Position numbers and translations under genes: made by a program
Notes under the pieces: generated by a model
What the model was told of the DNA's origin: nothing
Seen by the model: the letters and a program-made list of their open reading frames with translations, nothing else
The model's database searches: none
Source: an uncultured Verrucomicrobiota bacterium
Lineage (GTDB): Bacteria; Verrucomicrobiota; Verrucomicrobiia; Limisphaerales; UBA8199
Assembly (NCBI GenBank): GCA_903873945.1
Contig: CAIQQM010000291.1
Span: forward strand, 20,386-84,385
Direction of reading: 5' to 3'
DNA: 64,000 nucleotides
Shown: piece by piece, positions 7,981 through 36,233 of the stretch
Numbering within the stretch: the first letter of the stretch is position 1
Layout of the letters: each line of letters starts with the position of its first letter

Positions 7981-8763
7981 ATGCCTGAACAAATTAACGC
8001 ACTCGCCAAGATTATTCCCTCACTCATCGTCATCCTCGTGCTGGCTTCGGTCATCCTGCCACAAGCTGTACGCATTCTGCGCGAATATGAGCGCGGGGTT
8101 ATTTTCCGACTTGGAAAACTGCTCAGCGCCAAAGGGCCGGGAATGATCCTCCTGATTCCCGTTGTTGACCGCATGGTAAAGATGGACTTGCGCGTAGTCA
8201 CCATCGACGTCGCCAAACAGGAAATCATGACTCGCGATAACGTGCCCGCCACCGTTGATGCGGTAGTTTATTTTCGCGTCGTGGACCCGGTTGCGGCAGT
8301 GATCAAAGTGGAGAACTTCTGGAAAGCGACCTCGCTCATTGCGCAAACGACCCTCCGCAGCGTCCTGGGCCAGGCTCCGCTGGACGATCTGCTCTCACAA
8401 CGTGATGTGATCAACTTGAAGTTGCAGGAAATCATCGATCGCCAAACCGAGCCATGGGGCGTCAAAGTAACCGCGGTTGAGGTAAAGGACGTGTCGCTGC
8501 CCGACAGCATGAAACGCGCGATGGCCAAACAGGCGGAAGCTGAACGCGAGCGTCGCGCGAAAATCGTCAACGCCGAAGGCGAATTTCAGGCCGCGGAGAA
8601 GATGGTCCAGGCCGCCGCAATGATCAGCAAGGAACCCATCGCGCTCCAACTGCGCTTCCTCCAGACGATGCGTGAGATCTCCAGCGAGCACAACACCACC
8701 ACATTCCTGCCCGTTCCAATCGATCTGTTCAGCCCGTTCCTAAAAGGCCAGCAAAAATCCTAA
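7981..8763 (+). CDS. SPFH/stomatin-family (slipin) protein
   Basis: N-terminal TM, then [13 protein letters not shown]...[12 protein letters not shown]..., and a C-terminal coiled coil ([17 protein letters not shown]). Canonical partner of NfeD. Confidence 0.9.
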
Positions 8764-8893
8764 TGTCGGATCCGGAAGGCTGAGCTGCAAATCCGGCGGC
8801 GGTGAAGGGCGGAATCCGCTTTACCGCCCCGGGCCAGCCTTGGTCAACCGATTTTAGGTTCGACACCCAACGCTCGAAATTTAAGAATACGCT

Positions 8894-9130
8894 GTGCCCC
8901 TTTACGAATACGAACTCTGCGAAGGCGACTGCAAAGTCTGCGGAGGCAAGTTCACCCTGCGTCGGCCACTGTCGGCGGCACCCTTGACGAAGTGCCCGGT
9001 TTGCAAGAAGCCCGTCCGTAAAGTTTGGTCCGCCTTTAACTCGCCCAAAACACTCTCGATTTCGGACGCAAAAAAAGCCGGTTTTACCGTCCTTAAACGC
9101 GTTAACAAAGGCGAGTACGAACGCCAATAG
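8894..9130 (+). CDS. FmdB-family zinc-ribbon protein
   Basis: GTG start. MPLYEYELCEGDC..CGGKF...CPVCKK gives the CxxC...CxxC pattern with the PxYEYxC N-terminus typical of the family. Confidence 0.8.
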   Translation: MPLYEYELCEGDCKVCGGKFTLRRPLSAAPLTKCPVCKKPVRKVWSAFNSPKTLSISDAKKAGFTVLKRVNKGEYERQ

Positions 9131-9325
9131 CCAACCCGGCGGGGCTTGACTCCAGTTTGTGCGAAAAGTGAAGACTGGCTGAGGCGGAATGGAATAGAAT
9201 TGCTTTTGGGGAAGCATTTGTGGCTTCATTGCCCGCAGTTGGAACCGGTGGCGAGGTGATTTTCCTCCCGGGAGCGGGCCGCGTGTGGCATATTGGAGCA
9301 GGTTTGGGCTGTGAATCGCAAGCAA

Positions 9326-9589
9326 ATGCGGATTCTATATTCTGGCAGCGTGCAAGGCGTGGGGTTCCGCTATACTGTGAGAACGGTTGCCAATGGGTTC
9401 GAGGTCACGGGAATGGTTCGCAATCTTGCCGATGGCTGTGTAGAGCTAGTTGCCGAAGGCTCGAAAGACGAGTTGGATGCGTTCCGGCAAGGGATCAAAG
9501 AGTCGGGTCTGGAACACTTTATCGGGAAGGAAGACGTCAGCTGGGGCGAGGCCAGCAATGGGTTTCGCGGGTTCGAAATTGTGAGATAG
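9326..9589 (+). CDS. acyP: acylphosphatase
   Basis: ILYSGSVQGVGFRYTVRTVA...VTGMVRNLADGCVELVAEG is the acylphosphatase signature. I prefer the ATG at 9326 over the TTG at 9293. Confidence 0.85.
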   Translation: MRILYSGSVQGVGFRYTVRTVANGFEVTGMVRNLADGCVELVAEGSKDELDAFRQGIKESGLEHFIGKEDVSWGEASNGFRGFEIVR

Positions 9590-9596
9590 ACTTTAC

Positions 9597-10319
9597 ATGA
9601 AGTTTGCCATCATAGCCGATATTCACGCCAATCTGGAGGCGTTTCAGGCCGTATTGGAGGATATCAAGCAGCAGAAATGCACTCATTACGCGTGCCTGGG
9701 TGATATCGTCGGGTATAACGCCAATCCGAAAGAGTGCCTCGACATTGTCCGGAAGATGGGCATCCCCTGCGTAAAAGGCAACCACGACGAATACTGCTCC
9801 ACCGACGGGCCTTTGGACGGTTTCAATCCAGCCGCAGCCGAGGCCGTAAACTGGACACGCAAACAATTGACCCAGGAAGATCGTGAATGGTTGCGGGATC
9901 TGAAATATGTACGGATGGCAACCAACTTCACGATCGTTCACTCCACGCTCGATGGCCCACAACGATGGGGGTACGTGTTTGACAAACTGGCCGCAGCGGC
10001 CAGTTTCACTTATCAAAATACGGCGGTTTGTTTTTTTGGCCATACCCACGTGCCAGTAGCCTTCATTCGGGACAGCATGGTCCGGGGTGGCACCTATTCG
10101 AAGTTCAAGGTTGAGGCCGGCAAGAAATATTTTGTGAATGTTGGCGCCATAGGCCAACCACGCGATAACAACCCGAAAGCGGCGTATGTGGTTTACGACA
10201 TGAATGAAGGAACAATTGAATTGCGACGGTTGGAATATGACATCCCAATGACACAGAAGAAGATTCTGGATGCGGGGCTGCCTCCCCGCCTAGCTGAACG
10301 CCTCGCTTTCGGCAGATAG
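9597..10319 (+). CDS. metallophosphoesterase (YfcE/MJ0936-like)
   Basis: Motifs DIHAN, GDIVGYN, GNHD, GHTH in canonical order. Confidence 0.85.
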   Translation: MKFAIIADIHANLEAFQAVLEDIKQQKCTHYACLGDIVGYNANPKECLDIVRKMGIPCVKGNHDEYCSTDGPLDGFNPAAAEAVNWTRKQLTQEDREWLRDLKYVRMATNFTIVHSTLDGPQRWGYVFDKLAAAASFTYQNTAVCFFGHTHVPVAFIRDSMVRGGTYSKFKVEAGKKYFVNVGAIGQPRDNNPKAAYVVYDMNEGTIELRRLEYDIPMTQKKILDAGLPPRLAERLAFGR

Positions 10320-10385
10320 CCCCGAGCTTCAGGCTCGCGCCTTGAATTTTACGGCTCATCTTCCCTTCGTTCGCGCGACGCACTC

Positions 10386-11411
10386 TTGAAAATCCTGATT
10401 CTTAAACCCAGCTCCCTCGGCGACGTCATACAAGCCCTCCCGGTGTTGCGGATGCTTAAACGGCATCTTCCCGACAGCACGATTTATTGGTGGATTGAGT
10501 CAAAGTTGGCGCCGTTACTGGAAGGAGACCCGGATCTGGCGGGCATCGTCCGATTCGACCGCCAGCGTTGGGCCGAACCACGACAAGCGCTCGCATTCTG
10601 GCGCGGCCTGCGTTGGATGCGCTCCCAGACATTTGACTGGGTGATTGATTTGCAATGTTTGATTCGCAGCGGTTTCGTAGCCTGGCTTGCGAATGGAAAA
10701 ACGACGATCGGCCTCGACGAGCCGCGGGAAGGCGCCCGGGGAGTCTACGACATCATTGCGCAACGCCAGTCATTTCACACGCATGCGGTGGATTGGTATC
10801 TGGAAGTGCTGCGGCTCTTGAATGTGCCTGTCCGGTGGGACTTTCAGTGGCTGCCGGAACGGCCGGAGATCGCAGCAGCCGTGCGGCGGAAATGGCCGGT
10901 TGACGCAGCTAAATGGCTGGTCATCCAACCCGGTGCACGCCGGTTGAACAAGCGGTGGCCTGCGGAATACTTCGCCAGCCTTGTGAGGCAACTGGCTGCG
11001 GCACACGCGGATTTTCGCTTCGCTATTCTGGGCACTCGCAACGAACAGCCGCTGGGCGAGATCATTGCACGGGTCGATCCTCGCCGGTGCCTCGATTTGA
11101 CGGGCCAAGTATCCCTGCCGGAAATGGTCGAGTGGATCCGGTTGGGGGAGTTGGTGGTGAGCAACGACACTGGCCCGATGCACGTTGCGGCTGCGCTGGG
11201 CAAACCTGTAGTGGCTTTATTCGGCCCCACTGAGCCAAGACGCACAGGACCCTATGGCCAGATCGACCACACGTTACAGTTGGATCTCCCCTGCATTCCT
11301 TGCCTGAAACATGGCTGCGCTTCGCGAAACCCGCTGGAATGTTTGCAAGCGCTTCCAGTGACCACGGTTTTCCAAGCGGTGCAGAAACGCCTTGGCTCGC
11401 TCGCGCGGTAA
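10386..11411 (+). CDS. glycosyltransferase family 9 (LPS heptosyltransferase-like)
   Basis: TTG start. MKILILKPSSLGDVIQALPVLRMLK... and C-terminal SNDTGPMHVAAALGKPVVALFGPT are characteristic of GT9. Confidence 0.85.
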   Translation: MKILILKPSSLGDVIQALPVLRMLKRHLPDSTIYWWIESKLAPLLEGDPDLAGIVRFDRQRWAEPRQALAFWRGLRWMRSQTFDWVIDLQCLIRSGFVAWLANGKTTIGLDEPREGARGVYDIIAQRQSFHTHAVDWYLEVLRLLNVPVRWDFQWLPERPEIAAAVRRKWPVDAAKWLVIQPGARRLNKRWPAEYFASLVRQLAAAHADFRFAILGTRNEQPLGEIIARVDPRRCLDLTGQVSLPEMVEWIRLGELVVSNDTGPMHVAAALGKPVVALFGPTEPRRTGPYGQIDHTLQLDLPCIPCLKHGCASRNPLECLQALPVTTVFQAVQKRLGSLAR

Positions 11412-11483
11412 TTTCACAAAGGCGGCGCTCCATGATCGGTGTTTGCGGCTTGCTACTCCTTAATGGCCATTTAAAGTGGCTGG

Positions 11484-12392
11484 ATGAAAAAAATCGCGTT
11501 GTGGTTAAGTCTCCTGAGCGGCTTAATCTCGCCGGTTGCGGCCCAGGTTGGAGTGGAGGTCACACTCGAACAGGACCAGTTTCTTCCGGGTGAAGCTCTG
11601 CAAGTGGCGGTGCGCATCACCAGCCATGCCGGTCAGACGCTCATTCTGGGTGGAGCAGATGATTGGCTAACATTCTCGGTCGAATCGCCCGACGGAATTG
11701 TTGTACCAAAGACGAGTGATCTTCCGGCGAAGAACGAATTCCCTCTGCAGTCCTCCAAAGTAGCGACCGTCCGCGTAAATCTGGCCCCCTATTTTGCTCT
11801 AACCCAGCCCGGACGCTATGCGGTAACCGCCACAATCAAAATTAAAGGATGGGACAGCGAGGTCACAAGCCGGCCGAAGGGTTTTTATATCATCCAAGGC
11901 GCCAAGTTATGGGAGCAGGAGATTGGCATACCGAAACCCACGGGCGCATCGGCAGGCTCTCCTGAAGTCCGCAAGTATATTCTGCAACAAGCCAACTACC
12001 TCAAGAACCAACTTCGACTTTATTTGCGTCTAACCGATGCTTCCGAAGCGAAGGTTTTTCGAGTCATTCCTATCGGCCAGCTGGTTTCCTTCAGCAAGCC
12101 TGAACCACAAGTCGACAAACTCAGCAACCTGCACGTTCTTTACCAAAACGGGCCACATTCCTTCAGCTACACCGTTTGCAATCCCGACGGGGATATGCTC
12201 ATCCGCCAGACCTACGATTACGTGAGCGCGCGCCCGCGGTTGCGAGGGAATGGCGAGGGGAGCATAACGGTGGAGGGTGGCGTCCGCCGGATGATGGCCA
12301 GTGATTTCCCCGTACCCAAACCGGAAACGCCGCTAGAAGAACCGTCCAAAACCGCGGGGCCAACCAACGAATTTAAACAGGTGAAACCCTGA
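11484..12392 (+). CDS. secreted hypothetical protein
   Basis: Clear signal peptide (MKKIALWLSLLSGLISPVAAQ). Beta-rich sequence with no family recognised. Confidence 0.55.
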   Translation: MKKIALWLSLLSGLISPVAAQVGVEVTLEQDQFLPGEALQVAVRITSHAGQTLILGGADDWLTFSVESPDGIVVPKTSDLPAKNEFPLQSSKVATVRVNLAPYFALTQPGRYAVTATIKIKGWDSEVTSRPKGFYIIQGAKLWEQEIGIPKPTGASAGSPEVRKYILQQANYLKNQLRLYLRLTDASEAKVFRVIPIGQLVSFSKPEPQVDKLSNLHVLYQNGPHSFSYTVCNPDGDMLIRQTYDYVSARPRLRGNGEGSITVEGGVRRMMASDFPVPKPETPLEEPSKTAGPTNEFKQVKP

Positions 12393-25406: not shown

Positions 25407-25979
25407 CTACTTTCGGACTAGCTCCGGATGCTCCATGAAGGCGTAGCAGAGCATATGACAGATGCCCATTTGGGCATCTTCCACGCGGCCATAGTGGGTG
25501 TCGTTGATCATCAGGACACATTCGGCAATTTCGGCCATCCGACCCCGCTTGGCACCCACCAAGGCCACGGTCTGCAATCCGTGGTCTTTGGCCCAGCCCA
25601 GGGCTTTGACGCAGTTGGGGGAGTTGCCGCTCACGCTGATGCCCAGGGCGATGTCGCCCGGTTTTCCGTAGTTTTGCAACTGCCCGACAAACACCTCCTC
25701 ATACGAATAGTCATTGGCCAGAGCCGTCATCCAGCTCACATTGTCGTTCAAAGAAAGCACACGGAACCGTTTACCGACCTTATCAGAGGCACCCTTGCCG
25801 AGGTCCGTAGCAAAGTGAGAAGCATTGGCAGCGCTGCCGCCGTTGCCAAAAACGAAAATCTGGCTGCCCGCGTGAAGAGCGGCGCGCAGTTTCTCAATAA
25901 GTTCGGCCACCGCTTCCACGGGAATCGAGTCATGAGCGGCTTTTTGAGTTCGGATGTAGTCAGAGATCCAGTGCTTCAT
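25407..25979 (-). CDS. gmhA: SIS-domain sedoheptulose-7-phosphate isomerase-like protein
   Basis: IFVFGNGGSAANASHFATDL and ISVSGNSPN match GmhA-type SIS domains. Last gene of the long minus-strand glycan operon. Confidence 0.8.
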   Translation of the reverse strand: MKHWISDYIRTQKAAHDSIPVEAVAELIEKLRAALHAGSQIFVFGNGGSAANASHFATDLGKGASDKVGKRFRVLSLNDNVSWMTALANDYSYEEVFVGQLQNYGKPGDIALGISVSGNSPNCVKALGWAKDHGLQTVALVGAKRGRMAEIAECVLMINDTHYGRVEDAQMGICHMLCYAFMEHPELVRK

Positions 25980-26072: not shown

Positions 26073-27026
26073 CTACTGATTGTAAAGGAGGCGGAGGGCC
26101 AACTGAGCCAGGGGCCGGGGCAGGAGCTTTTTCGCCACTAATTCCCCGCTGCGGCGACAACACCGCGAGACCAGGAGCGGGGTTAAGAACTGCCGATATT
26201 CGCGCCGACTCATGATGAGACGAAGCACAGGGACACCGAACAACCCGAGTACGGCGCTGTCACGGATGCGAGGGGCGATGTCCGAACAAGCGGGCGAAGA
26301 AAGCTTGTCGAGCAGGTGGGTCAGCACCTGAAAGTGCTCTCCAGTCTTGCGCCCTCGATTGTAGAAGGATGTGGAATAGAGATAAAAATCCGACAATGGT
26401 TCCGGAATGTAGCAGACGCCGTAGCGCAAAGCGGGGACAAAAGCGGCAAACCAGTCGGCATGCCAGCGGAGTTCAGGATGAAAGCGGCCCGCTTCGAGCA
26501 AGGGTTGCCGCTTAAAAACCGCGCTGGCGGTGACAATTAATAGCTTGCCCCGCCGACCTAACCGGACCAATTCCTGCGGGGAAAGGTAGCAGGGTTTCTC
26601 GGCCATGCCCGCGGCCATAAACCACCTCAAGCCGGAGGCCGCATCGTGCCATTCGCTCACCGAACAACTCATCGCCGCCTGAGGATACCGAGCCAGCAAA
26701 GTGAGCGATTTTTCAAACAAACCCGGCTGCACCTCGTCATCTGCCGAGCCAATATATACGTAATCACCACAAGACAATTCCAAGCCCTTGTTAAGATTGG
26801 GCATGACGCCAAGGTTTTTCTCGTTTTGGATAAGCCGGACGAGCGGGTTCTGCGCGGCAATCCGCTTGATGATTTCCACACTGTCGTCGGTTGAAGCATC
26901 ATCCAAAACTAACACTTCTATTGGCCGCAGCGATTGTTTGATAATGGCGGAAAGGGAGGTGTCGAGGTATTTGCCGTGATTGTAGTTGGGGACTACAACC
27001 GAAAGCGCCGGGAGTGAAGAAGACAT
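26073..27026 (-). CDS. glycosyltransferase family 2
   Basis: LSVVVPNYNHGKYL...VLVLDDASTDDS...GSADDEV gives the GT-A DxD architecture. Confidence 0.85.
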   Translation of the reverse strand: MSSSLPALSVVVPNYNHGKYLDTSLSAIIKQSLRPIEVLVLDDASTDDSVEIIKRIAAQNPLVRLIQNEKNLGVMPNLNKGLELSCGDYVYIGSADDEVQPGLFEKSLTLLARYPQAAMSCSVSEWHDAASGLRWFMAAGMAEKPCYLSPQELVRLGRRGKLLIVTASAVFKRQPLLEAGRFHPELRWHADWFAAFVPALRYGVCYIPEPLSDFYLYSTSFYNRGRKTGEHFQVLTHLLDKLSSPACSDIAPRIRDSAVLGLFGVPVLRLIMSRREYRQFLTPLLVSRCCRRSGELVAKKLLPRPLAQLALRLLYNQ

Positions 27027-27084: not shown

Positions 27085-28209
27085 TCACACAAACGCCAAA
27101 TGCTCCGGCTCCTTTCCCTGAGGGCGTTGGAGTTCGAGTTTTTCTTTGACCAAATTGTCGAGGGTTTCATTGACACGGTGCTGCAGGCAGAGACTGCCGC
27201 ACATTTTCTGCGCATTAAACTCGGGGCTGGCCAGATAATTTATCACTTCCCAGTACCGGTCACTCTGCCAGATGTCCTTGAAACTTTGCTCGCAGATGTT
27301 CCCGATATGGAACTTCTTGTATTTTTCGTTGAACAACATGCCGCAGGGAGCCACCAGGCCCGAGCCGGAAATCTGTAGCAAAAATGGCGCGCCATAGCAG
27401 CGCTGGTAAGAGCGCGTGCCCTGGGCCTGGATTTTGCTCCACTTGACGGTGCATTGGTAGCTGGAATCGGAATAGGACTCCGCTTCGTGCAAGAGATCGC
27501 TGAGCCGCGAATAGCCGCGGTAATCCACGCCTAGGTCGCCGTTTTCGTTATCGCTGCAATGTTTGATCGCGAGGTAATCGACCCGGAGCTCTTTGCCCAG
27601 CCGCGCCAGGGGGATAATCTGATCGGCGTACTGCGGCATGAGCACCATTTGGAGACCGATCGTGACGCCGAGACGGTCGCGCCGCTTGATCTCGGTCATG
27701 TGCCGGATGTTTTCGATCACCCGATGGAAATATTCCTCCTTCACACCCATGATTTCGGCATAACGCTTGGGTTCGCCAGCGGAAATATTGACGCGCAGAT
27801 AGGTCAAGTGAGGAAGCACTTCCTCCGATTTGCTGCGCGTCAAGACATAAGCGTTGGTGCCACAGGCTATCGAGAGCCCCAGGGCGGATCCCTGCTGGCA
27901 CGACTGCACAAACACAGGCGAAATGGTGCTTTCGCCATCAGAGACAAAGCTGACACCCTTGACGCCGATTTCGGCACAGTCATTCAGAAAGCGGGAGATG
28001 ACCTGTTTATCGATGAAGCTCCGGTCATTCTCCTGGAGCATGGCATAACAATAATGGCATCCGAAATTGCAAGCCCGGGTCAGGGCCATGTCGATGGTAA
28101 TCGGAGCGATGCGCTCGCCGCGCTCCCAGGCGCGCACCCGGTCCTCGTGCCAGGCAATCTTGGTGCCGTCGAGGATCAGCTTCTCCACATGTTCAGTCAT
28201 TCCACTCAT
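27085..28209 (-). CDS. radical SAM enzyme with C-terminal SPASM/twitch-like Cys-rich domain
   Basis: CX3CX2C in ALTRACNFGCHYCYA. C-terminal cysteines lie in QRCYGAP, VAPCGMLF, GNICEQSFKDIW and KMCGSLC. The ATG at 28209 shares its A with the upstream TGA (TGATG). Confidence 0.85.
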   Translation of the reverse strand: MSGMTEHVEKLILDGTKIAWHEDRVRAWERGERIAPITIDMALTRACNFGCHYCYAMLQENDRSFIDKQVISRFLNDCAEIGVKGVSFVSDGESTISPVFVQSCQQGSALGLSIACGTNAYVLTRSKSEEVLPHLTYLRVNISAGEPKRYAEIMGVKEEYFHRVIENIRHMTEIKRRDRLGVTIGLQMVLMPQYADQIIPLARLGKELRVDYLAIKHCSDNENGDLGVDYRGYSRLSDLLHEAESYSDSSYQCTVKWSKIQAQGTRSYQRCYGAPFLLQISGSGLVAPCGMLFNEKYKKFHIGNICEQSFKDIWQSDRYWEVINYLASPEFNAQKMCGSLCLQHRVNETLDNLVKEKLELQRPQGKEPEHLAFV

Positions 28210-29291
28210 CAATTTACTTTCTCGATCTGGCGTCGAAGCTTGCTGAGGTCTTTCTTTTCCTCGCAGAACACTTCGAGCCGGGGATCGCAATGTTCCCGCA
28301 CGAGTCTTTCCAGCGCCAGCGCCAGGCTGCGCTTGGCGGAGATCGGGAGCTGGTCGCCGAACCGAACGGTGACGGCATAGGCATGGTTGCAGTCAACCAC
28401 CTGCACCTCGCCATTCTTGAGCCCAAGCACCGCGCCATGAGCGGCCAAAGCCGCGGTGACGCGCGCTTCCCGTTGGGCGGGGGACAAAGCGGCCCAGGCG
28501 GCGCGGGGGCCCGGGTCGAAAAAGTTTGCCGCCGGGCGGTAGCCAGTGGAAGTCAGATAATCGTTGAAGAGCCGGTTCGCCAACGAGGAGGGAAGCCGAA
28601 ATAGCGGGTCAGCGTTCTGGGGAAGCACGATCCCCGCGATGGGATGGCGCTGGCGCGGGTCACGCAGCGAGAATTCCAGGCGGATGATCGCATGATCTCT
28701 GGCCTCAAGCACGGGCAACCCAACCAGAATCTCACAGAAGGCGTCGAGCGCCGCCAGCATGGGGCCGCGGGCAGTCCCGTCAAAGACAGCGTCGGTGATC
28801 ACATGAGCATCGGTTTGCACCGCCCACGCCAGGGTGCAATGCTCCTCAGTGGCGCGGAGAGGAATTTGATTCTCCCGCACACGCAACTCGCGCTTAAAGC
28901 GCAGATTGGCGAAGCGCGCCCGGAGACGTTGCTGGTAAATGGGCCGCACCGAACGGAACGAGGCGGTTTCCTGCAGGTGAGCGATGGTGAAAACCACCGC
29001 GCCCGGTTCCGCCCGACAACCAACCTCACCCAGGCTGGCCAGTTTCTCCTTGAGCAAGGCAGCGGCTTGGTGCTCGATGATTTTGTTGGCTACCCGCACC
29101 GAGATGGAATCGCTGCCACAAAGCTGGGCGGCTTCGACCAGGTTGCTGAGACTCCGCACCGGGTCGTCATCCGGAACCCAGGTATCCAGCATTTCTTCAG
29201 CCGGCCGGAAGCCCCGGAGGGTGACGTCGAGATTCGTGTTGTACGCCTCAACGAGCTTGTCGTAATCGAAAATCTTTTCGGTTGTCGTCAT
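28209..29291 (-). CDS. hypothetical protein (360 aa), no family recognised; translationally coupled to the radical SAM gene
   Basis: Uninterrupted ORF embedded in the operon, 18 nt after the preceding gene, with its stop overlapping the next start. No motif I can assign. Confidence 0.6.
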   Translation of the reverse strand: MTTTEKIFDYDKLVEAYNTNLDVTLRGFRPAEEMLDTWVPDDDPVRSLSNLVEAAQLCGSDSISVRVANKIIEHQAAALLKEKLASLGEVGCRAEPGAVVFTIAHLQETASFRSVRPIYQQRLRARFANLRFKRELRVRENQIPLRATEEHCTLAWAVQTDAHVITDAVFDGTARGPMLAALDAFCEILVGLPVLEARDHAIIRLEFSLRDPRQRHPIAGIVLPQNADPLFRLPSSLANRLFNDYLTSTGYRPAANFFDPGPRAAWAALSPAQREARVTAALAAHGAVLGLKNGEVQVVDCNHAYAVTVRFGDQLPISAKRSLALALERLVREHCDPRLEVFCEEKKDLSKLRRQIEKVN

Positions 29292-29309: not shown

Positions 29310-30419
29310 CTATTTGGACCCATTATAGTAACAATGGACAGAGTGAATAGTGAAGTCAAGCTCCTCCCGCGTCAGGTGCTGGTGGGCGGGGAGGGTAATA
29401 ATGCTGCGGCAGTCGGCTTCGGCCTTCGGGAAGGTCCCCGGTTTATACCCCAAATAGGCGGCGGCGGGTTGGAGGTGGATGGGTTTGGGATAATGCACCT
29501 TGGCTTCGATGCCGCGCTGCTGCAGGAAGGCCAGGAGGCCGTCGCGGTCCTTGGCGCGCACCATGTACAGGTGATAGACATGCTTGACGCCGGGGCGCCG
29601 GAGGGGGGGCTTGACGAACTCCGGAATGTCGGCCCAGGCGGCGTCGTAATAGGCTGCGTTCTTGATCCGGGTTTGGGTGATGAAATCCAGTTGTGGCAGG
29701 AGACGGTTGGCCACGACGGCTTGCAGGGTGTCCAGGCGGCAGTTGATGCCGAAAAACTCGATTTCGTCGCGGTTGACGAGTCCATGATTGCGATAGAGCC
29801 TGAGTTTGCGGGCCAGTTCCGCCGAGCGGGTGGTGACCACGCCTCCGTCAGCCCAAACATTCAAGTTCTTGAGCGGATGCAAGCTGTAGGCGGCAGCCTC
29901 ACCCCAGGAACCCATGGGGCGGCCGTTGAATTCGCCGCCAATCGACTGGCAGGAATCCTCGAAAATCATGAGGCCGCGTTTGTCGGCGATGGCCTTGATC
30001 CGGTCGAGGTCGGGGATATTGCCACTGAAGGTTACCGTGACGATGGCTTTGGTCCGGGGCGTAATGGCCGCTTCGATCTTCTCGGGATCAATCATGAGAC
30101 CGTCTTCACTGTCCACGAGCACGGGACGCGCGCCGGTGGCGACGATGGCGCCGACGGTGGCGTAGAAGGTCATGGTGGTGGTGATCACTTCATCGCCCGG
30201 ACCGATGCCGGAGAGTTTCATCGGCAGGATCAACGCATCCGTTCCGGTGCCTACGCCGATGGCGTGCGGCATGCCGGCGCGTTTGGCAAAACGCTCTTCG
30301 AACTCCGTCAGCGGCTTGCCCAAAGTGAAATCTCCGCTTTTCACCAGCGCCCGGATATCGTGCAGATAATCTTCGACGTCAGCGAATTGGCGGTCCAGAT
30401 AGGAGAAAGGGACTTTCAT
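29310..30419 (-). CDS. DegT/DnrJ/EryC1/StrS-family PLP-dependent sugar aminotransferase
   Basis: MKVPFSYLDRQF... with the PLP-lysine motif YSLHPLKNLNVWADGG. I used the start at 30419 (M21 of the ORF-track translation). Confidence 0.9.
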   Translation of the reverse strand: MKVPFSYLDRQFADVEDYLHDIRALVKSGDFTLGKPLTEFEERFAKRAGMPHAIGVGTGTDALILPMKLSGIGPGDEVITTTMTFYATVGAIVATGARPVLVDSEDGLMIDPEKIEAAITPRTKAIVTVTFSGNIPDLDRIKAIADKRGLMIFEDSCQSIGGEFNGRPMGSWGEAAAYSLHPLKNLNVWADGGVVTTRSAELARKLRLYRNHGLVNRDEIEFFGINCRLDTLQAVVANRLLPQLDFITQTRIKNAAYYDAAWADIPEFVKPPLRRPGVKHVYHLYMVRAKDRDGLLAFLQQRGIEAKVHYPKPIHLQPAAAYLGYKPGTFPKAEADCRSIITLPAHQHLTREELDFTIHSVHCYYNGSK

Positions 30420-30432
30420 GGGATAATGGGAT

Positions 30433-31545
30433 TTAGTTCGTTTTATAAAAATCGAGGATGGCCTGAGCAACTGCGTCAATTTGCTGGCCGCTGAGTTCGG
30501 AATAGATGGGGAGGCTGAGAATTCGCCCAGCCAGACGTTCGCAAACCGGGAAGTCTCCTTCGCGGTGGCCCAACCGCCGGCCGACGGTCATCAAATGGAT
30601 GGGGACGGGGTAATGGATGGCTGTTCCGATGCCTTGCGTTTGCAGGTACTGGACCAACTCATCCCGCTTGTCGGCCTGCACTACGAACGTGTGATAGACA
30701 CAGAATTCGCCGGGGCCATCGACGGGGCATTGCAGGCGCCGGCAGGCAGCCAAACGCAGACGATAGCGTTCGGCATTGGCCCGGCGGGAGGCGGTGATAG
30801 CCTCCAGGTGCCGAAGCTTGACCCGGAGTATGGCGGCCTGGATGGAATCAAGACGGGACACCATGCTGAATTCAAGACAATCATTCCGACTGGGCTGGCC
30901 ATGGTTGCGCAGCAGCCGCGCGCGCTGCCAAACCGATTCGTCATCGGTAACCAGCATTCCGCCATCGCCGCAGGCGTTCAGATTCTTCAACGGGTGGAGG
31001 CTGAAGCAGCCGATCCGGCTGAGTGAGCCCACCGGCTTTCCGTGCAAAGCCGCACCAACCGCCTGGGCCGCATCTTCGATCAGTTCCACCCCGCGCTCTT
31101 GCGCGAGGGCTGACAACTCTTTCATCGCCGCAGGTTTGCCGGTCAGATGCACTGGAATAATGGCCCTGGTGCGCGGAGTAATGGCGCGGGCCACGGCTTC
31201 CGGGTCCAAATTCAAATCATCCCGCACATCGGCAAACTTCGGCACGGCTCCGGCCAGGGCAATGCAACTGGCGCTGGCGAGATAAGAATTGGGAGCCGTA
31301 ATCACTTCATCGCCCGGCCCGATGCCGAGGCACCGAAGCGCGAGGATCAAAGCGTCGGTTCCTGAATTGAGCCCCACGGCGTAGCGGGCGCCGCAAAAAA
31401 CGGCAAACTCCTGCTCAAAGCGCTCGGTTTCCTCGCCCAGAATAAACTGGCCCGAATCGAGCACCCCCGCGACAGCCTGGAGCATCTGCTCGCGCTGGGG
31501 GTGTTGCCGGTGGGACAGGTTTACGTAAGGAATGGATGTGCTCAT
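30433..31545 (-). CDS. DegT/DnrJ/EryC1/StrS-family PLP-dependent sugar aminotransferase (second paralog)
   Basis: IPYVNLSHRQ... with the PLP-lysine motif FSLHPLKNLNACGDGG. I used the start at 31545 (M28 of the ORF-track translation). Confidence 0.9.
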   Translation of the reverse strand: MSTSIPYVNLSHRQHPQREQMLQAVAGVLDSGQFILGEETERFEQEFAVFCGARYAVGLNSGTDALILALRCLGIGPGDEVITAPNSYLASASCIALAGAVPKFADVRDDLNLDPEAVARAITPRTRAIIPVHLTGKPAAMKELSALAQERGVELIEDAAQAVGAALHGKPVGSLSRIGCFSLHPLKNLNACGDGGMLVTDDESVWQRARLLRNHGQPSRNDCLEFSMVSRLDSIQAAILRVKLRHLEAITASRRANAERYRLRLAACRRLQCPVDGPGEFCVYHTFVVQADKRDELVQYLQTQGIGTAIHYPVPIHLMTVGRRLGHREGDFPVCERLAGRILSLPIYSELSGQQIDAVAQAILDFYKTN

Positions 31546-31558
31546 TGCAAACCAGGAT

Positions 31559-32635
31559 TTAGAAAGGACCAGGAAACTCAAGGTATGGGACATCCACAGG
31601 ACAGGGCCGCTTGGGAAACTTATCAACCAAACTGGCTCCGCGCCCGACGATCCGCGCGGCCGCCAGAAATAAGTCGGGGGCGGCCGGATAATAAACCGCC
31701 GCCAGCGCGGAAGAGCTGGGGGAGGCGCAATCCGGGTAAGTCACGCGCACGGGTGGAGCATTCAATTTCAACCCCGCCTCGCCAACCCGGGCGACGATCT
31801 CCGCCGCAAATCCGCACTGACGGGTATCGTCATCCGCCACCACCAATCCCCGGGTCTTTTTCACAGAGTTGGCAATCGTCTCGAAGTCCAGCGGATTCAA
31901 GCATCGCACGTCCACAACCTCCATTTCCACCCCCGCGTGGGCGGAGGCAAAATCCGCAGCCCGCAAGGCTTCAATCACCATGTGGGAACTGGCCACTACC
32001 GTCACATCCGAACCGCTCCTCGCGACCAGACACTCGCCCAAAGGAGTGCGGTGATAACCCTCCGGCACAGGTCCGCGCATATTGTGCAGCCAACGATGCT
32101 CCAGAAAAATCACAGGGTTGTCGTCCTCCACGCTGGCGACCAGCAGGCCTTTGGCATCCGCCGGCGAGGCCGGGGCAACCACTTTTAGACCGGGTATATG
32201 CGCAAACCAAGAGCTTAGACTCTGGGCGTGCTGGGGCCCCTGCCCCCAGCCCCGGCCGATGATCATTCGGATCACAATCGGGATCGTGCCGCCGCGGCCG
32301 TCAAACATGTAATACCATTTGGCCGCCTGGTTGACGATTTGTTCAAGGCTCAAGAGCGCAAAATCGACGCGTTGATGGGTAAGGATGGGGCGCATTCCGC
32401 CCAAGGCCGCGCCAATGACCAGACCGGTCAGAGCGTTTTCGGACAACGGCACATCCAGAGCCCGATCGGCGCCGAACTCGGCCGCCAGCTCGGCGGTGGT
32501 TCCGAAAATCCCTTTCGGGTCGGGCACTCCCAGGCCAATCACAAAAGCACGCGGGTCGCGGGCCAGGCAGAGAGCGGTGCCTTCGCGGATGGCCTCGGCG
32601 AAGGTCAGCTCTCGTGTTGGGGATTTGTCGCTCAT
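31559..32635 (-). CDS. ThDP-dependent 2-oxoacid dehydrogenase E1 component, beta-subunit-like (transketolase Pyr/C domains)
   Basis: TFAEAIREGTALCLARDPRAFVIGLGV..., DVPLSENALTGLVIGAALGGMRPI, FLEHRWLH. The start overlaps the E1alpha stop (ATGA at 32632-32635). Confidence 0.85.
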   Translation of the reverse strand: MSDKSPTRELTFAEAIREGTALCLARDPRAFVIGLGVPDPKGIFGTTAELAAEFGADRALDVPLSENALTGLVIGAALGGMRPILTHQRVDFALLSLEQIVNQAAKWYYMFDGRGGTIPIVIRMIIGRGWGQGPQHAQSLSSWFAHIPGLKVVAPASPADAKGLLVASVEDDNPVIFLEHRWLHNMRGPVPEGYHRTPLGECLVARSGSDVTVVASSHMVIEALRAADFASAHAGVEMEVVDVRCLNPLDFETIANSVKKTRGLVVADDDTRQCGFAAEIVARVGEAGLKLNAPPVRVTYPDCASPSSSALAAVYYPAAPDLFLAAARIVGRGASLVDKFPKRPCPVDVPYLEFPGPF

Positions 32636-33660
32636 GGCGCAAACACTCCCCTCTGCAAGGTCGCCGCGTCCGGCATGGGACTGGAGCGGACATTTTCAAT
32701 GACCGCATCGATTTCCCGGATATATCGTTTTTCGGCCGCTGTCATTTCCGGGTCGAGTGCCGGGCTCAATGCCAGCAAGCGCGTTCGCGCGACAGCTAAG
32801 GGGCAACGCTCCGCCCAATGCTTGATCTGTTCCGCCTCGCGGTAGCCTAGGTGGTCATCCTGTCCGGGGCCGCAGTGTTCGTAATAGCGCCAGGTGGAAA
32901 ACTCGACCACACACGGCCGGCCCGGGTCTTGGCGCATGGCGGAAAGCGCCTGGCCGGTCAGAGCGAAGACTTCTTCAACATCGTTGCCATGCCCTGAGAA
33001 ATAGAGGCTCCCGTGGCTTCGCACGTAACTTCCAAATTCAAAATCCGGGGCGCGCCGCAAACTGAGGGGCGTGTAAACCGAGAAGCCATTGTTTTCGCAG
33101 ATGAAAAGCATCGGCACGCGCAACACGCACGCAAGGTTGAGCGTTTCGGTGAAAACCCCCTCTTCGGTTGCGCCTTCGCCGAAAAATGCGGTGGTCAGCT
33201 CATCGCCACCTCTCCGTTTGTCGGCTAACGCCAGCCCCAAGGCGATGGGCATAGTGCTGCCCACGATCGGCACCGCGCCCCAAAAACCGGCTTCCCGGTC
33301 GATCAGATGCATCGAGCCGCCGCGGCCGCCGCAGCAGCCGGCTTCCCGGCCATAGAGTTCGGCGAGCATGGCGCGGATATTGCCGCCTTTGGCCAGATAG
33401 TGGCCGTGAGACCGGTGCGCGCTCATCACTTTGTCCTGCTTGCGCAAATGAGCGCAAACTCCGACCGCCACAGCTTCCTGGCCGATGCTCAGGTGGACCG
33501 GACAGCGCATCTCTTTCTCACCGTAACGCTCCGCGATGCGCCGCTCGATAACGCGGATGCGCAGCATCTCCAGATACAGGCGCCAGAGCCGATCGCATAT
33601 TTGGCTTGAGGTTTCCGCCCGGGGCGGCTGGCTCAGAGGCACCGGTGAGTTGGCCATCAT
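32632..33660 (-). CDS. ThDP-dependent 2-oxoacid dehydrogenase E1 component, alpha-subunit-like
   Basis: LSIGQEAVAVGV, HRSHGHYLAKG, GGRGGSMH. The ThDP motif reads FFGEGATEEG...ENNGFSV, so GDG is GEG here. Confidence 0.85.
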   Translation of the reverse strand: MMANSPVPLSQPPRAETSSQICDRLWRLYLEMLRIRVIERRIAERYGEKEMRCPVHLSIGQEAVAVGVCAHLRKQDKVMSAHRSHGHYLAKGGNIRAMLAELYGREAGCCGGRGGSMHLIDREAGFWGAVPIVGSTMPIALGLALADKRRGGDELTTAFFGEGATEEGVFTETLNLACVLRVPMLFICENNGFSVYTPLSLRRAPDFEFGSYVRSHGSLYFSGHGNDVEEVFALTGQALSAMRQDPGRPCVVEFSTWRYYEHCGPGQDDHLGYREAEQIKHWAERCPLAVARTRLLALSPALDPEMTAAEKRYIREIDAVIENVRSSPMPDAATLQRGVFAP

Positions 33661-33676: not shown

Positions 33677-34696
33677 TTATCGAATGCGGAGTTCCTGCAT
33701 CCGCTTGATATTCGAAAAGAGCGTATTGGTCATCGGGTTGGGTATTTTCCCGGCTCGGTAGGCGACGGCAATGCTGCTGATGGCATCCTCGATGGTGAAC
33801 TTTGGCTCGAACCCGAGCACGTTCTTGATCTTCTCAGAGTTGACATGGTAGGAGCGATTGTCGTTCGTCGGCGTGTACTCCAATTCGATGACCGGATCAT
33901 CGAGCACTTTGACCACCATTTTCGCAATGTCTTCGATCGAGCGATTCTGGAAGCCGACATTGAAGGCCTCGCGGTCAATTTTGGCGCCGGGTGCTTGCAG
34001 GAATAGATGATAGGCCCGCACCATATCGTCGATGTGGAGGTTGGGGCGGAGCTGTTTGCCGCCAAAGATGCGGATCTTACGGTTCACGAGCGCGTTGATC
34101 GTGAGAATATTAACGCTGAGGTCAAGCCGCAGGCGCGGTGCGTAGCCGCAGATAGTCGCCGGACGCACGATGACGCGTTCCATGCCATTGGCATTGGAGT
34201 GGGCCAACAGATCCCGCTCGCAATCCAGCTTGAAACGCGAGTAATCCGTCAACGGCTCAGGCGCAGCATCCTCGCGGACATTCGGGTCCTCCTTAACTCC
34301 GTAAATGCTGGAAGAGCTGGCGTAGACGAACCGCTTGACGCCCTGGTCGATGGAACTCTGCAGCAACCCGGCAAACGCGTCGTAGTTGATCGATTTGCCA
34401 AGCGAAGGATCGAGTTCGAAACTCGGGTCGTTGGAAATGCATGCCAGGTGGATAACGGCGTCGATGCCCTTGAGCGCCGCTTTCAGGCGTGTACTGTTGC
34501 GGATGTCCAACTCGATCCGTTCAAGCTGTGGATTCCGGTTGGCGTCGCCATAGACGTCGCGGCCGTACCAAAACAGATCGACGACTTTGACCTCGTAGCC
34601 TTGCTTGAGTAGAGAGGGCACGAGGGCGCTGCCGACGTAGCCGCCACCCCCAGTGACCAGGACTGATTTGAATTCATGAGGATGCTGCTTGTTCAT
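33677..34696 (-). CDS. NAD-dependent sugar epimerase/dehydratase (extended SDR)
   Basis: VLVTGGGGYVGSAL (GxxGxxG), the ASSSSIYG serine, and the YSRFK (YxxxK) catalytic dyad. Confidence 0.9.
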   Translation of the reverse strand: MNKQHPHEFKSVLVTGGGGYVGSALVPSLLKQGYEVKVVDLFWYGRDVYGDANRNPQLERIELDIRNSTRLKAALKGIDAVIHLACISNDPSFELDPSLGKSINYDAFAGLLQSSIDQGVKRFVYASSSSIYGVKEDPNVREDAAPEPLTDYSRFKLDCERDLLAHSNANGMERVIVRPATICGYAPRLRLDLSVNILTINALVNRKIRIFGGKQLRPNLHIDDMVRAYHLFLQAPGAKIDREAFNVGFQNRSIEDIAKMVVKVLDDPVIELEYTPTNDNRSYHVNSEKIKNVLGFEPKFTIEDAISSIAVAYRAGKIPNPMTNTLFSNIKRMQELRIR

Positions 34697-34703
34697 AAAA
34701 ACG

Positions 34704-36233
34704 TTACTTCATCAAAGACGTGATATGCCGGAACAGGCTTGTCGGCTCGATGAAGCTGCGGTGGCCCATAATAGTGCAGGCTTCCGCTCCGACGACGTTC
34801 GCGATAAAACCGAGCACCTGGGGCGGCACGCTCAAGGCCGCGCAAGGGGCTGTAAGGCCCAGCACGGCATCTCCCGCGCCGACGCGGTCCACGACGCGGA
34901 TGGCAAACGCGGGCACGTGGAAAGTGCCTTGTTCACGGTCATGAACCAAGCAACCGGAGGCGCCGCGCGTCACGAGGAAGTTTTTCGTTGAGATTTTACG
35001 GGCGATACCTTCAGCCAGGCCCCGCAGGTCGCCGCTGGCTTTGCGGGCGTCGAGGCGGACTTCGGGATCCCCGATAGAGACAAAATCGGCGCGCGGGTAT
35101 TTTGAGATGGTGTTGAAGCCTTTGTTGCCGGCATTGGCCTGAGTGTTGACGGCCAGGAATTTGGATTTCTTGCAGACTAATTCCACGCCCCGGTCAGTCA
35201 TCAAGCCGTGGCCATAATCGGCGACCACCACCAGGTCAAATTGTGGGGCCAGCCGTTCCAGCGCGGAGCAGAACTCCGCCTCCGCCTCGGCTGGCATGGC
35301 GTCATTGCGCATCACATAGACCTCAAAGAGCTTGGCTGAGAGATATTCCTCGAGAAACCGGCGTTTGATGATCGTCGGCGCACCCGCCACCCGGACGAAT
35401 TGAGGCGTGATGTTCTTATTCAGTTTGGAGAGGATGAAATCCTCGCACGAATTGATCTGCCCAACCGAACTGAGAAGGGTGACATTGTCGCAAAAGTTCG
35501 AGATGTGATTGGCAATGGCCGGCGCGCCGCCGGCGTATTGCTCGGTTCGATTATGCAGGGCGGCCAGCACCGGTTCCTTGCCGGATTTGCCCATCACCGA
35601 GCAAAACTGGTATTCGTCGATAATGGTTTCCCCCACAATGAGCACCTTAAGTTTGCGAATGGCCTGAAGGTAGCCGACGATCTCTTCCGGAGTGTGGCGC
35701 ATGCGGAACTGCTCGAGGAACGCCTTGGTTTCCGTGGAAAAAACGTCCGTAAACCGGTTAATGAGGGCCGACGCGCTAAAGGTTTCCTCATCGGTGAGCA
35801 CGAGTTGCCCGCCAGTCGCTTTGACGGCATTCTCCTCTTTGTCGATGGCATCGGTATGGTCGCGTTTTCCCGCCTCGCGCACGATGCCTTTCACATAGAA
35901 CGAAGGCCGGAGCCGTTCTATGGTTTCCACCGCCGTAGGCCATTCATTGATGGCGACAAAATCGACACAGGCAAGGGAAGCCAGGGCTTCCGCACGCAAA
36001 CGTTCGGGAAAGGCGGGGCGATGGGGTCCTTTGTTGACGAACCGGTCGGGGGTAATCGTCACGACGAGCAAATCGCCTAACTTGCGGGCCGCTTCAAGAT
36101 GCTTGATGTGTCCGATATGCAACAGGTCAAAAACTCCGTGGCAGTGCACGGCCCTCTTCCCTTCGGCTCGAAGTACTGCCAGGGTTTTGGCCAGGTCCTC
36201 GATCGGTCTTATCTTGCGCTCGGTCGTGTCCAT
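34704..36233 (-). CDS. bifunctional sugar-phosphate nucleotidyltransferase (N) / PfkB-family sugar kinase (C), HldE-like with reversed domain order
   Basis: The N-terminal domain has HCHGVFDLLHIGHIKHLEAARK (HxGH) and FYVKG. The C-terminal domain has VNTQANAGN and VDRVGAGDAVLG (PfkB signature). I chose the ATG at 36233 (MDTTERK); the 116 upstream codons look non-coding. Confidence 0.8.
   Translation of the reverse strand: MDTTERKIRPIEDLAKTLAVLRAEGKRAVHCHGVFDLLHIGHIKHLEAARKLGDLLVVTITPDRFVNKGPHRPAFPERLRAEALASLACVDFVAINEWPTAVETIERLRPSFYVKGIVREAGKRDHTDAIDKEENAVKATGGQLVLTDEETFSASALINRFTDVFSTETKAFLEQFRMRHTPEEIVGYLQAIRKLKVLIVGETIIDEYQFCSVMGKSGKEPVLAALHNRTEQYAGGAPAIANHISNFCDNVTLLSSVGQINSCEDFILSKLNKNITPQFVRVAGAPTIIKRRFLEEYLSAKLFEVYVMRNDAMPAEAEAEFCSALERLAPQFDLVVVADYGHGLMTDRGVELVCKKSKFLAVNTQANAGNKGFNTISKYPRADFVSIGDPEVRLDARKASGDLRGLAEGIARKISTKNFLVTRGASGCLVHDREQGTFHVPAFAIRVVDRVGAGDAVLGLTAPCAALSVPPQVLGFIANVVGAEACTIMGHRSFIEPTSLFRHITSLMK

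Follow-up and report, generated by a model that had tools for sequence, protein, structure and literature searches.

What can an enzyme that resembles the E1 component of a 2-oxo-acid dehydrogenase complex do in an operon for glycan synthesis, when the other components of such complexes are not encoded beside it? The question is raised by a pair of genes for E1alpha- and E1beta-like, thiamine diphosphate (ThDP)-dependent subunits in a stretch of 64,000 nucleotides (the window, in what follows) from an uncultured Verrucomicrobiota bacterium (Limisphaerales, UBA8199; assembly GCA_903873945.1, contig CAIQQM010000291.1, positions 20,386 to 84,385 of the forward strand). A first-pass annotation had described the pair as a stand-alone E1 without lipoyl-acyltransferase (E2) or dihydrolipoamide dehydrogenase (E3) and had proposed that it delivers a two-carbon unit from pyruvate to a keto-sugar. 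Our analysis of sequence and gene context, read by analogy with the literature, supports this interpretation. With a probability of about 0.6, the pair would be an E2-independent alpha2beta2 carboligase of the alphaKADH2 type that transfers the C2 unit of pyruvate onto a nucleoside diphosphate (NDP)-4-keto-heptose. We favour this reading because three results fit it, namely a well-supported clade of E1 pairs without E2, the conserved gene order around the pair, and a remodelled C terminus of E1beta.

The two genes lie within a cassette of ten co-directional genes on the minus strand, in the order nucleotidyltransferase-PfkB kinase fusion (NT-PfkB), short-chain dehydrogenase/reductase (SDR), E1alpha, E1beta, two DegT-family aminotransferases, a 360-aa protein, a radical SAM/SPASM enzyme, a family 2 glycosyltransferase (GT2) and a GmhA-like isomerase of the SIS type; a flippase, more GT2 genes, a sugar C-methyltransferase and a family 9 glycosyltransferase (GT9) are found nearby. 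Open reading frames and Pfam matches confirmed both genes, and at 32632-32635 the plus strand reads TCAT, corresponding to a coding ATGA in which the stop codon of the alpha gene overlaps the start codon of the beta gene. E1alpha and E1beta are translationally coupled by this overlap, and the overlap as well as the setting in a glycan operon agree with what the first-pass annotation had stated.

Both subunits have the domains of the E1 superfamily, that is, E1_dh in alpha and Transket_pyr with Transketolase_C in beta, and a Pfam scan detected no TPP_enzyme_N, TPP_enzyme_M or TPP_enzyme_C domain in either of them. However, both fall short of the curated NCBIfam equivalog or subfamily cut-offs for pyruvate dehydrogenase (PDH) E1: a score of 249.6 bits was obtained for E1alpha with PDH_E1_alph_y (TIGR03182; cut-off 393.85) and of 265.6 bits for E1beta with the subfamily model NF006667 (cut-off 321). 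An AlphaFold2 monomer of E1beta (predicted local distance difference test, pLDDT, 86.9) has the core of a standard E1beta, with a template modelling (TM) score of 0.93 against 1W85_B, and shares its fold with 1-deoxy-D-xylulose-5-phosphate synthase (DXS) and split transketolase. Alpha His262 aligns with the histidine of YHGHS in human PDH E1alpha and beta His136 with that of ELHSDS in the Geobacillus protein, making them the equivalents of the catalytic alpha- and beta-histidines, and the two asparagines of the Mg motif are retained as well. Loss of a lipoamide-related histidine as a sign of E2 independence was thus ruled out, as both are present.

In order to look for partner enzymes, the whole assembly was searched with the hidden Markov models 2-oxoacid_dh, Biotin_lipoyl and Pyr_redox_dim. 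Matches were confined to contigs C34, C268, C18, C202, C83 and C2, and no E2, lipoyl domain or E3 was detected on the contig of the window (C291); likewise, tblastn searches of the window with the E2 and E3 proteins of this genome gave no match. The absence of E2 and E3 from the 64 kb, reported in the first-pass annotation, therefore extends to the contig. That annotation had also named partners encoded elsewhere and co-regulated with the pair as an outcome that would speak against its proposal. E2 and E3 do occur in the genome, but each E2 already adjoins an E1 of its own: contig C34 encodes AceE (1329 bits, above cut-off), E2 and Lpd, and contig C268 encodes an E1alpha with a canonical GDG motif, an E1beta and an E2. 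The E1alpha of the glycan operon is only 27% identical to the E2-linked E1alpha of C268, and the pair has no cognate E2 such as accompanies the E1 of the PDH, branched-chain 2-oxo-acid dehydrogenase or acetoin complexes.

A maximum-likelihood tree provided the comparison with E2-linked E1 proteins that had been suggested for checking the proposal. All 15 E1alpha from sugar contexts, together with the one of a Streptomyces plasmid pair, fell into a single clade with 99/99 support, and all seven E2-linked E1alpha fell outside it. No E2 was encountered in the flanks of any sugar-context relative (13 loci across phyla), and an E2 adjoins the E1 pair only in relatives that are at most 42% identical (L014, L015, L016, L018, L043 and L044). 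One of the latter (L043; G117:C14, about 8100-11900, minus strand) has a single open frame of 1105 aa that joins E1alpha to E1beta, with a lipoyl-domain match just downstream. The Streptomyces member of the clade (L026; plasmid pSGRIFU1 of Streptomyces griseofuscus, record 137096-139142), the beta subunit of which ends in GFAGPY, is surrounded by genes for a condensation-domain protein, an acyl carrier protein, a phosphopantetheinyl transferase, a thioesterase and a ketosynthase, and by no sugar genes.

The closest 120 E1alpha homologues come from metagenomes and metagenome-assembled genomes, and each of the homologue contexts examined among L020-L024 and on an Azospirillum plasmid is a sugar cluster without E2. 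The same cassette is present at L020 (72% E1alpha identity), L021 (56%) and L023 (52%), where the contig stops behind both DegT genes, and the whole of it was found on a plasmid from a cultured bacterium, Azospirillum oryzae KACC 14407 (L025; 46%), in which the orthologues of the pair are WP_149200359 and WP_149200358. A Nitrospirota locus (L022; 51%) has heptose-type genes, a radical SAM and a B12-radical SAM gene, and no DegT, and a further relative (L024; 50%) belongs to a different sugar cluster that includes an acetolactate synthase (ALS)-type ThDP enzyme. When gene presence was compiled by tblastn over 23 loci, SIS isomerase, NT-PfkB, SDR and the E1 pair emerged as a recurrent core in ten loci, NT-PfkB co-occurring with the pair in 10 of the 13 sugar-context loci compared, while only a subset also encodes the DegT pair, the 360-aa protein and the radical SAM enzyme. 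In most related loci an ortholog of the SDR immediately precedes E1alpha, and the order SDR-E1alpha-E1beta is kept across phyla within heptose-type sugar cassettes. In the phylum of the window the distribution is patchy, with matches at E <= 1e-60 in 8 of 201 genomes.

Members of the clade also share marks in the proteins themselves. The C terminus of E1beta is the docking place of the peripheral subunit-binding domain of E2 (PMC11754459). The chain encoded in the window does not end in the native-type manner there but runs about 27 residues beyond the canonical end, the tail beginning at the point where Geobacillus E1beta stops. A comparable extension of 27-40 residues is present in 13/13 clade E1beta, 12 of which end in GPF or GPY (L011 diverges), and a terminal GPF was found in 119 of 120 E1beta homologues. 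The tail is absent from 7/7 E2-linked E1beta and from 25 Actinomycetota E1beta used as controls, and the 401 Actinomycetota genomes sampled yielded canonical E1beta only, without a tail. In the AlphaFold2 model the tail has pLDDT values of 81-96 up to residue 350, the model being a monomer without alpha that does not show contacts of the tail; in Foldseek searches no solved E1beta covered the tail (aligned columns 326-336 of 358). As judged from these alignments, the region for E2 docking in normal complexes is remodelled in the clade. Just before the catalytic histidine of beta, a GRGWGQG loop was found in 118 of 120 homologues and was invariant in alignment A1, whereas E2-linked E1beta have a Gly-rich loop without the Trp-Gly-Gln signature. 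The E1alpha signatures of the clade are M(R/K)CPVHLS, HRSHxHYL, G(E/D)(G/A)ATEEG, CENNxxSVY and YRWREHCGP, the last being the consensus of the alpha-His loop, with a three-residue insertion when compared to E2-linked E1alpha.

The first-pass annotation had drawn attention to the diphosphate-Mg motif of alpha. The subunit indeed reads FFGEGATEEG...CENNG, with Glu162 (codon GAA, 33175-33177, minus strand) in the place of the usual Asp; when compared to the pattern G-D-G-x(24-27)-N-N, the length fits and NN is present. The Asp of GDG is the classical Mg ligand. Among the closest 120 E1alpha homologues, this position is Glu in 101 (GEG 89, GEA 12), Asp in 19 and Gly in 1, and one fragment lacks the motif. 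Conservation of GEG thus holds for the majority in the clade, but Glu alternates with Asp, which predominates in the deeper members (L011, L012, L013, L025, L026, L039, L040 and L042). L022, an Asp form, nests among Glu forms in the tree, which points to repeated switches of the residue. Among 33 E1alpha from outside the clade that served as controls, Asp was found in 31 and Glu in 2. The latter two (L062 in G446 and L066 in G552, both Actinomycetota) are ordinary E1alpha with GEG, their beta subunits being without the GPF tail, which means that Glu at the Mg position also occurs beyond the sugar clade. On these grounds we rejected GEG as a marker of function, as it alternates with GDG and GDA within the clade; Glu appears to be a tolerated variant that is enriched there, and neither marks a function nor gives evidence of inactivation. 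A literature search on GEG versus GDG gave nothing. The clade motif G(E/D)(G/A)ATEEG (33157-33180 in the window, alpha residues 161-168) also differs from the GDGAxNQG of E2-linked E1alpha, and the acidic residue before the last Gly of ATEEG resembles the GDGxxxEG form of transketolases.

Pairs of E1alpha/E1beta type without E2 in sugar clusters, which form the class alphaKADH2 of TEED, are treated in the literature as pyruvate-dependent enzymes for C2-branching of keto-sugars (PMC4753412; PMC12247030), in line with what the first-pass annotation had stated on avilamycin AviB1/AviB2. Genetic precedents are AviB1/B2 and Pau11/12 (PMC4753412), and KbDH-alpha/beta couples pyruvate in vitro to ketones, including pyranone mimics of sugars (PMC12247030). 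The pair of the window shares with AviB1/AviB2 (avilamycin), Pau11/Pau12 (paulomycin), KbDH-alpha/beta (kibdelomycin) and the aldgamycin pair that two genes without E2 or E3 encode the enzyme, in a cluster for the tailoring of nucleotide sugars. In the antibiotic clusters the maker of the keto-sugar is adjacent and enzymes that modify the ketone follow (an aminotransferase in kibdelomycin); in the window, the adjoining SDR and the DegT enzymes are candidates for these roles. The antibiotic pairs differ in that they serve dTDP-6-deoxyhexose pathways in secondary-metabolite clusters, whereas the pair of the window lies in a surface glycan cassette with GmhA-like and reversed HldE-like genes, has genes for a radical SAM/SPASM enzyme and for a protein without family match as neighbours, and has Glu for Asp in the Mg motif. 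With the E1 of PDH, branched-chain and acetoin complexes (1NI4, 1W85, 1DTW) the pair has in common the fold, the domain order, the ThDP architecture and both catalytic histidines; it is set apart from them by the missing cognate E2, the GPF tail at the E2-docking site, the GRGWGQG, CPVHLS, ATEEG and REHCGP motifs and the missed NCBIfam cut-offs. A third group, the YerE-type (ALS-like) ThDP flavoenzymes, branches CDP-4-keto-3,6-dideoxyglucose in the formation of yersiniose and erwiniose. The reaction proposed here is the same, in that an acyl anion from pyruvate or another 2-oxo acid is joined to a nucleotide-bound keto-sugar for the surface glycan of a Gram-negative organism, but YerE-type enzymes have an unrelated, single-chain architecture with the TPP_enzyme_N/M/C domains that the pair lacks.

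The coordinates of the genes and of the motifs within them are collected in the table.

Table. Features of the E1alpha/E1beta pair and of its cassette (positions in the window).
Feature	Position	Strand	Basis
E1alpha-like ThDP subunit (P0001), 342 aa	32632..33660	-	Pfam E1_dh 1.8e-51; in E2-less clade
E1beta-like subunit (P0002), 358 aa	31559..32635	-	Pfam Transket_pyr 3.3e-26 and Transketolase_C 8.2e-30
ThDP-Mg motif GEGATEEG...CENN of alpha (residues 161-191)	33088..33180	-	Glu162 in usual Asp position
Alpha loop YYEHCGP with His262	32866..32886	-	Alignment to human PDH E1alpha and clade alignment
Beta GRGWGQG loop (residues 127-133), then His136	32219..32257	-	Clade-wide motif
E1beta subfamily C-terminal tail (residues 331-358), ending D-x-P...F-x-GPF	31562..31645	-	Homologue comparison
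NT-PfkB fusion, HldE-like, domain order reversed	34704..36233	-	Pfam CTP_transf_like and PfkB
Extended SDR directly upstream of E1alpha, candidate keto-sugar maker	33677..34696	-	Pfam Epimerase 2.2e-41
DegT-family aminotransferase 1	30433..31545	-	Pfam DegT_DnrJ_EryC1 2.4e-109
DegT-family aminotransferase 2	29310..30419	-	Pfam DegT_DnrJ_EryC1 6.7e-99
360-aa protein, no family match	28209..29291	-	No Pfam or NCBIfam match
Radical SAM/SPASM enzyme	27085..28209	-	Pfam Radical_SAM and SPASM
GT2 glycosyltransferase	26073..27026	-	Pfam Glycos_transf_2 1.6e-26
GmhA-like SIS isomerase	25407..25979	-	Pfam SIS_2; NCBIfam gmhA 118.5 bits, below cut-off of 209

Gene anatomy, clade membership, the lack of E2, synteny and subfamily motifs are shown by the analysis above; the pathway that follows is inferred, from donor and acceptor to the position of attack and every later step. 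The GmhA-like isomerase and the reversed HldE-like kinase/nucleotidyltransferase would provide an NDP-heptose-type sugar, of which the upstream SDR would oxidise a ring hydroxyl, most likely that at C4, to the ketone. E1alpha/E1beta, in which Glu162 would bind the Mg2+ of ThDP in place of Asp, would then decarboxylate pyruvate to hydroxyethylidene-ThDP and add the C2 unit to the sugar carbonyl, leading to an acetyl-branched tertiary alcohol with a C9 skeleton. The two DegT enzymes and the radical SAM/SPASM enzyme may rework this product, for instance by amination of the branch ketone; in kibdelomycin the branch ketone is transaminated afterwards (PMC12247030). Finally, the GT2 would transfer the product to a surface glycan. 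The C2 transfer to a keto-sugar that the first-pass annotation had put forward is in this way supported by clade, synteny and E1beta C terminus, with the modification that the acceptor is probably of the heptose type and not a 6-deoxyhexose.

The choice of C4 follows from the SDR. Its best relative in the PDB is 6VO6/6VO8 (118 bits), and 6VO6 is, we presume, the heptose C4-dehydrogenase Cj1427 from Campylobacter. Cj1427 makes a 4-keto-heptose without dehydration, a compound that would suit as acceptor, but the SDR of the window matches it with about 118 bits only, and the nucleotide would probably be set by an HldE-type transferase and not by a GDP-forming one. In Cj1427-type chemistry, GDP-heptose is oxidised at C4 without dehydration to GDP-4-keto-heptose (PMC10680097).

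Several points weigh against a pyruvate-derived branch on a 4-keto-heptose. The similarity of the SDR to 6VO6 is modest, and the identity of the latter as Cj1427 is presumed. Pfam and NCBIfam detected neither a GmhB phosphatase nor an obvious N-acyltransferase in the cassette, so that the pathway as drawn is incomplete. The placement with AviB1/B2, AlmDI/DII, Pau11/12 and KbDH follows from gene context and not from the tree, a contig scan for AviB1/B2- or KbDH-like pairs having returned distant relatives only, and every member of the heptose-linked clade is known from its sequence alone. The retained histidine pair, which is used in the reductive acylation of lipoamide, would still permit lipoyl chemistry. 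The pSGRIFU1 member has no sugar genes around it, and the clade is accordingly defined by E2 independence and not by sugar substrates; judging by this pair, it may also serve non-sugar acyloin chemistry. In a scan for actinomycete relatives, the Streptomyces plasmids pSGRIFU1, pSALBX2 and BHT-5-2 p1 came up in non-sugar or unannotated contexts.

Among the alternatives, the one we take most seriously, although it is unlikely, is that the pair performs ThDP chemistry on the sugar of the cassette other than a pyruvate C2 branch at a ring ketone, such as a DXS-like extension at a side-chain aldehyde to a linear 9-deoxy-nonose, the use of another 2-oxo acid as donor, or a C-C cleavage of the transketolase or acetoin type. 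The fold of beta, being that of DXS and split transketolase, is compatible with this, the occurrence of a split transketolase (L041) or an ALS-type enzyme (L024) beside E1 genes points to varied ThDP chemistry in such clusters, and the regiochemistry of the SDR is read from similarity. However, the characterised alphaKADH2 sugar enzymes take pyruvate as their only donor and attack ketones (PMC12247030), the SDR next to E1alpha has its closest similarity to a ring C4 dehydrogenase, and neither an aldolase nor a gene forming a 2-oxo acid was detected in the cassette with Pfam or NCBIfam.

A conventional E1 that relies on the E2 and E3 of other loci, for acetyl-CoA formation (e.g., for N-acetylation of an amino sugar) or acetoin degradation, its place in the operon being incidental or a matter of supply, would agree with the presence of E2 and E3 in the genome, with the two catalytic histidines and with two aminotransferases in a cassette without a recognisable N-acetyltransferase. 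We nevertheless consider it very improbable: each E2 of the genome has its own adjacent E1, the clade is never beside an E2 in 13 loci across phyla while the E2-linked relatives are all outside it, the conserved tail extends beta at its C terminus, where E2 docks in normal E1, the NCBIfam equivalog cut-offs are missed, and the genes are tightly coupled in translation within a sugar operon. Even harder to accept is a dead scaffold or pseudoenzyme in which the exchange of Asp for Glu abolishes binding of Mg-ThDP. The role of Asp as the classical ligand and its prevalence outside the clade (31/33) would be in its favour, but the exchange is conservative and keeps the carboxylate, 101/120 close homologues have Glu, near relatives differing in whether Glu or Asp is present, two of the 33 ordinary E1alpha have Glu too, and the remaining residues for cofactor and catalysis are all conserved. 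The C2-branching of a keto-heptose remains the explanation that we prefer.

Concerning the other genes of the cassette, the NT-PfkB fusion scored below the cut-offs of the NCBIfam models for rfaE domains I and II. DegT aminotransferase 2 is 55-80% identical to its counterparts in related cassettes, and the 360-aa protein is kept in L020, L021 and L025. The radical SAM/SPASM enzyme, with 74-81% identity in L020 and L021, is far better conserved than its neighbours: between the window and Azospirillum its identity amounts to 72%, that of E1alpha to only 46%. The Azospirillum cassette (NZ_CP054615.1, record 207512-219867), located on a 318-kb plasmid of a named alphaproteobacterium, comprises two extra SDRs, NT-PfkB, SIS, SDR, E1alpha, E1beta, two DegT, a hypothetical protein, the radical SAM enzyme and a NUDIX protein, and is flanked by GT4 genes. 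No O-antigen structure of Azospirillum oryzae was found in the literature.

Two loci show other elaborations. At L024 (10001-15435) the ThDP enzyme of ALS type (YerE-like) is encoded three genes downstream of the E1alpha/beta pair, an adh_short reductase lying in between, a gene content that suggests two types of ThDP carboligase in one pathway. At L041 (1025-14714; from a compact genome of 1.8 Mb) the core module is followed by a methyltransferase, a zinc-dependent alcohol dehydrogenase, a second, 4,6-dehydratase-like SDR, a sugar C-methyltransferase, a ketoreductase, an FkbM methyltransferase and a Transketolase_N gene of the split-transketolase type; it is a different elaboration of the same core start.

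Taken together, these observations also permit a bolder proposal, which we put forward as a speculation with the odds clearly against it. The cassettes might make undescribed C9 diamino sugars on a heptose, in which the acetyl group is attached at C4, the radical SAM/SPASM enzyme and its 360-aa partner close a carbocycle (from the new carbonyl carbon to C7, as in caryose) or otherwise rearrange the branch, and the two transaminases add the amino groups; the GPF tail would be what made a free-standing sugar carboligase out of a dehydrogenase bound in a complex.

Enzymes of this kind are known, but in the literature within our reach we found no description of the heptose-linked cassette, of its product or of the marks of the subfamily. 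About 120 antibiotic clusters of actinomycetes are known to encode sugar-branching E1alpha/beta enzymes, a single one of which has been assayed in vitro. With the GPF tail and the GRGWGQG loop in beta and CPVHLS, ATEEG and REHCGP in alpha, the predicted E2-independent carboligases can be separated from the true dehydrogenase E1 components with which automatic annotation now confuses them. The natural alternation of Asp and Glu at the Mg ligand can serve directly to test how strictly the GDG rule applies to ThDP enzymes, and Azospirillum oryzae is a tractable carrier of the cassette for knock-outs and glycan chemistry. Outside the antibiotic clusters, the same kind of enzyme appears as a fixed part of a cassette for heptose-type surface glycans, which is distributed patchily across several bacterial phyla and is also present on an Azospirillum plasmid.

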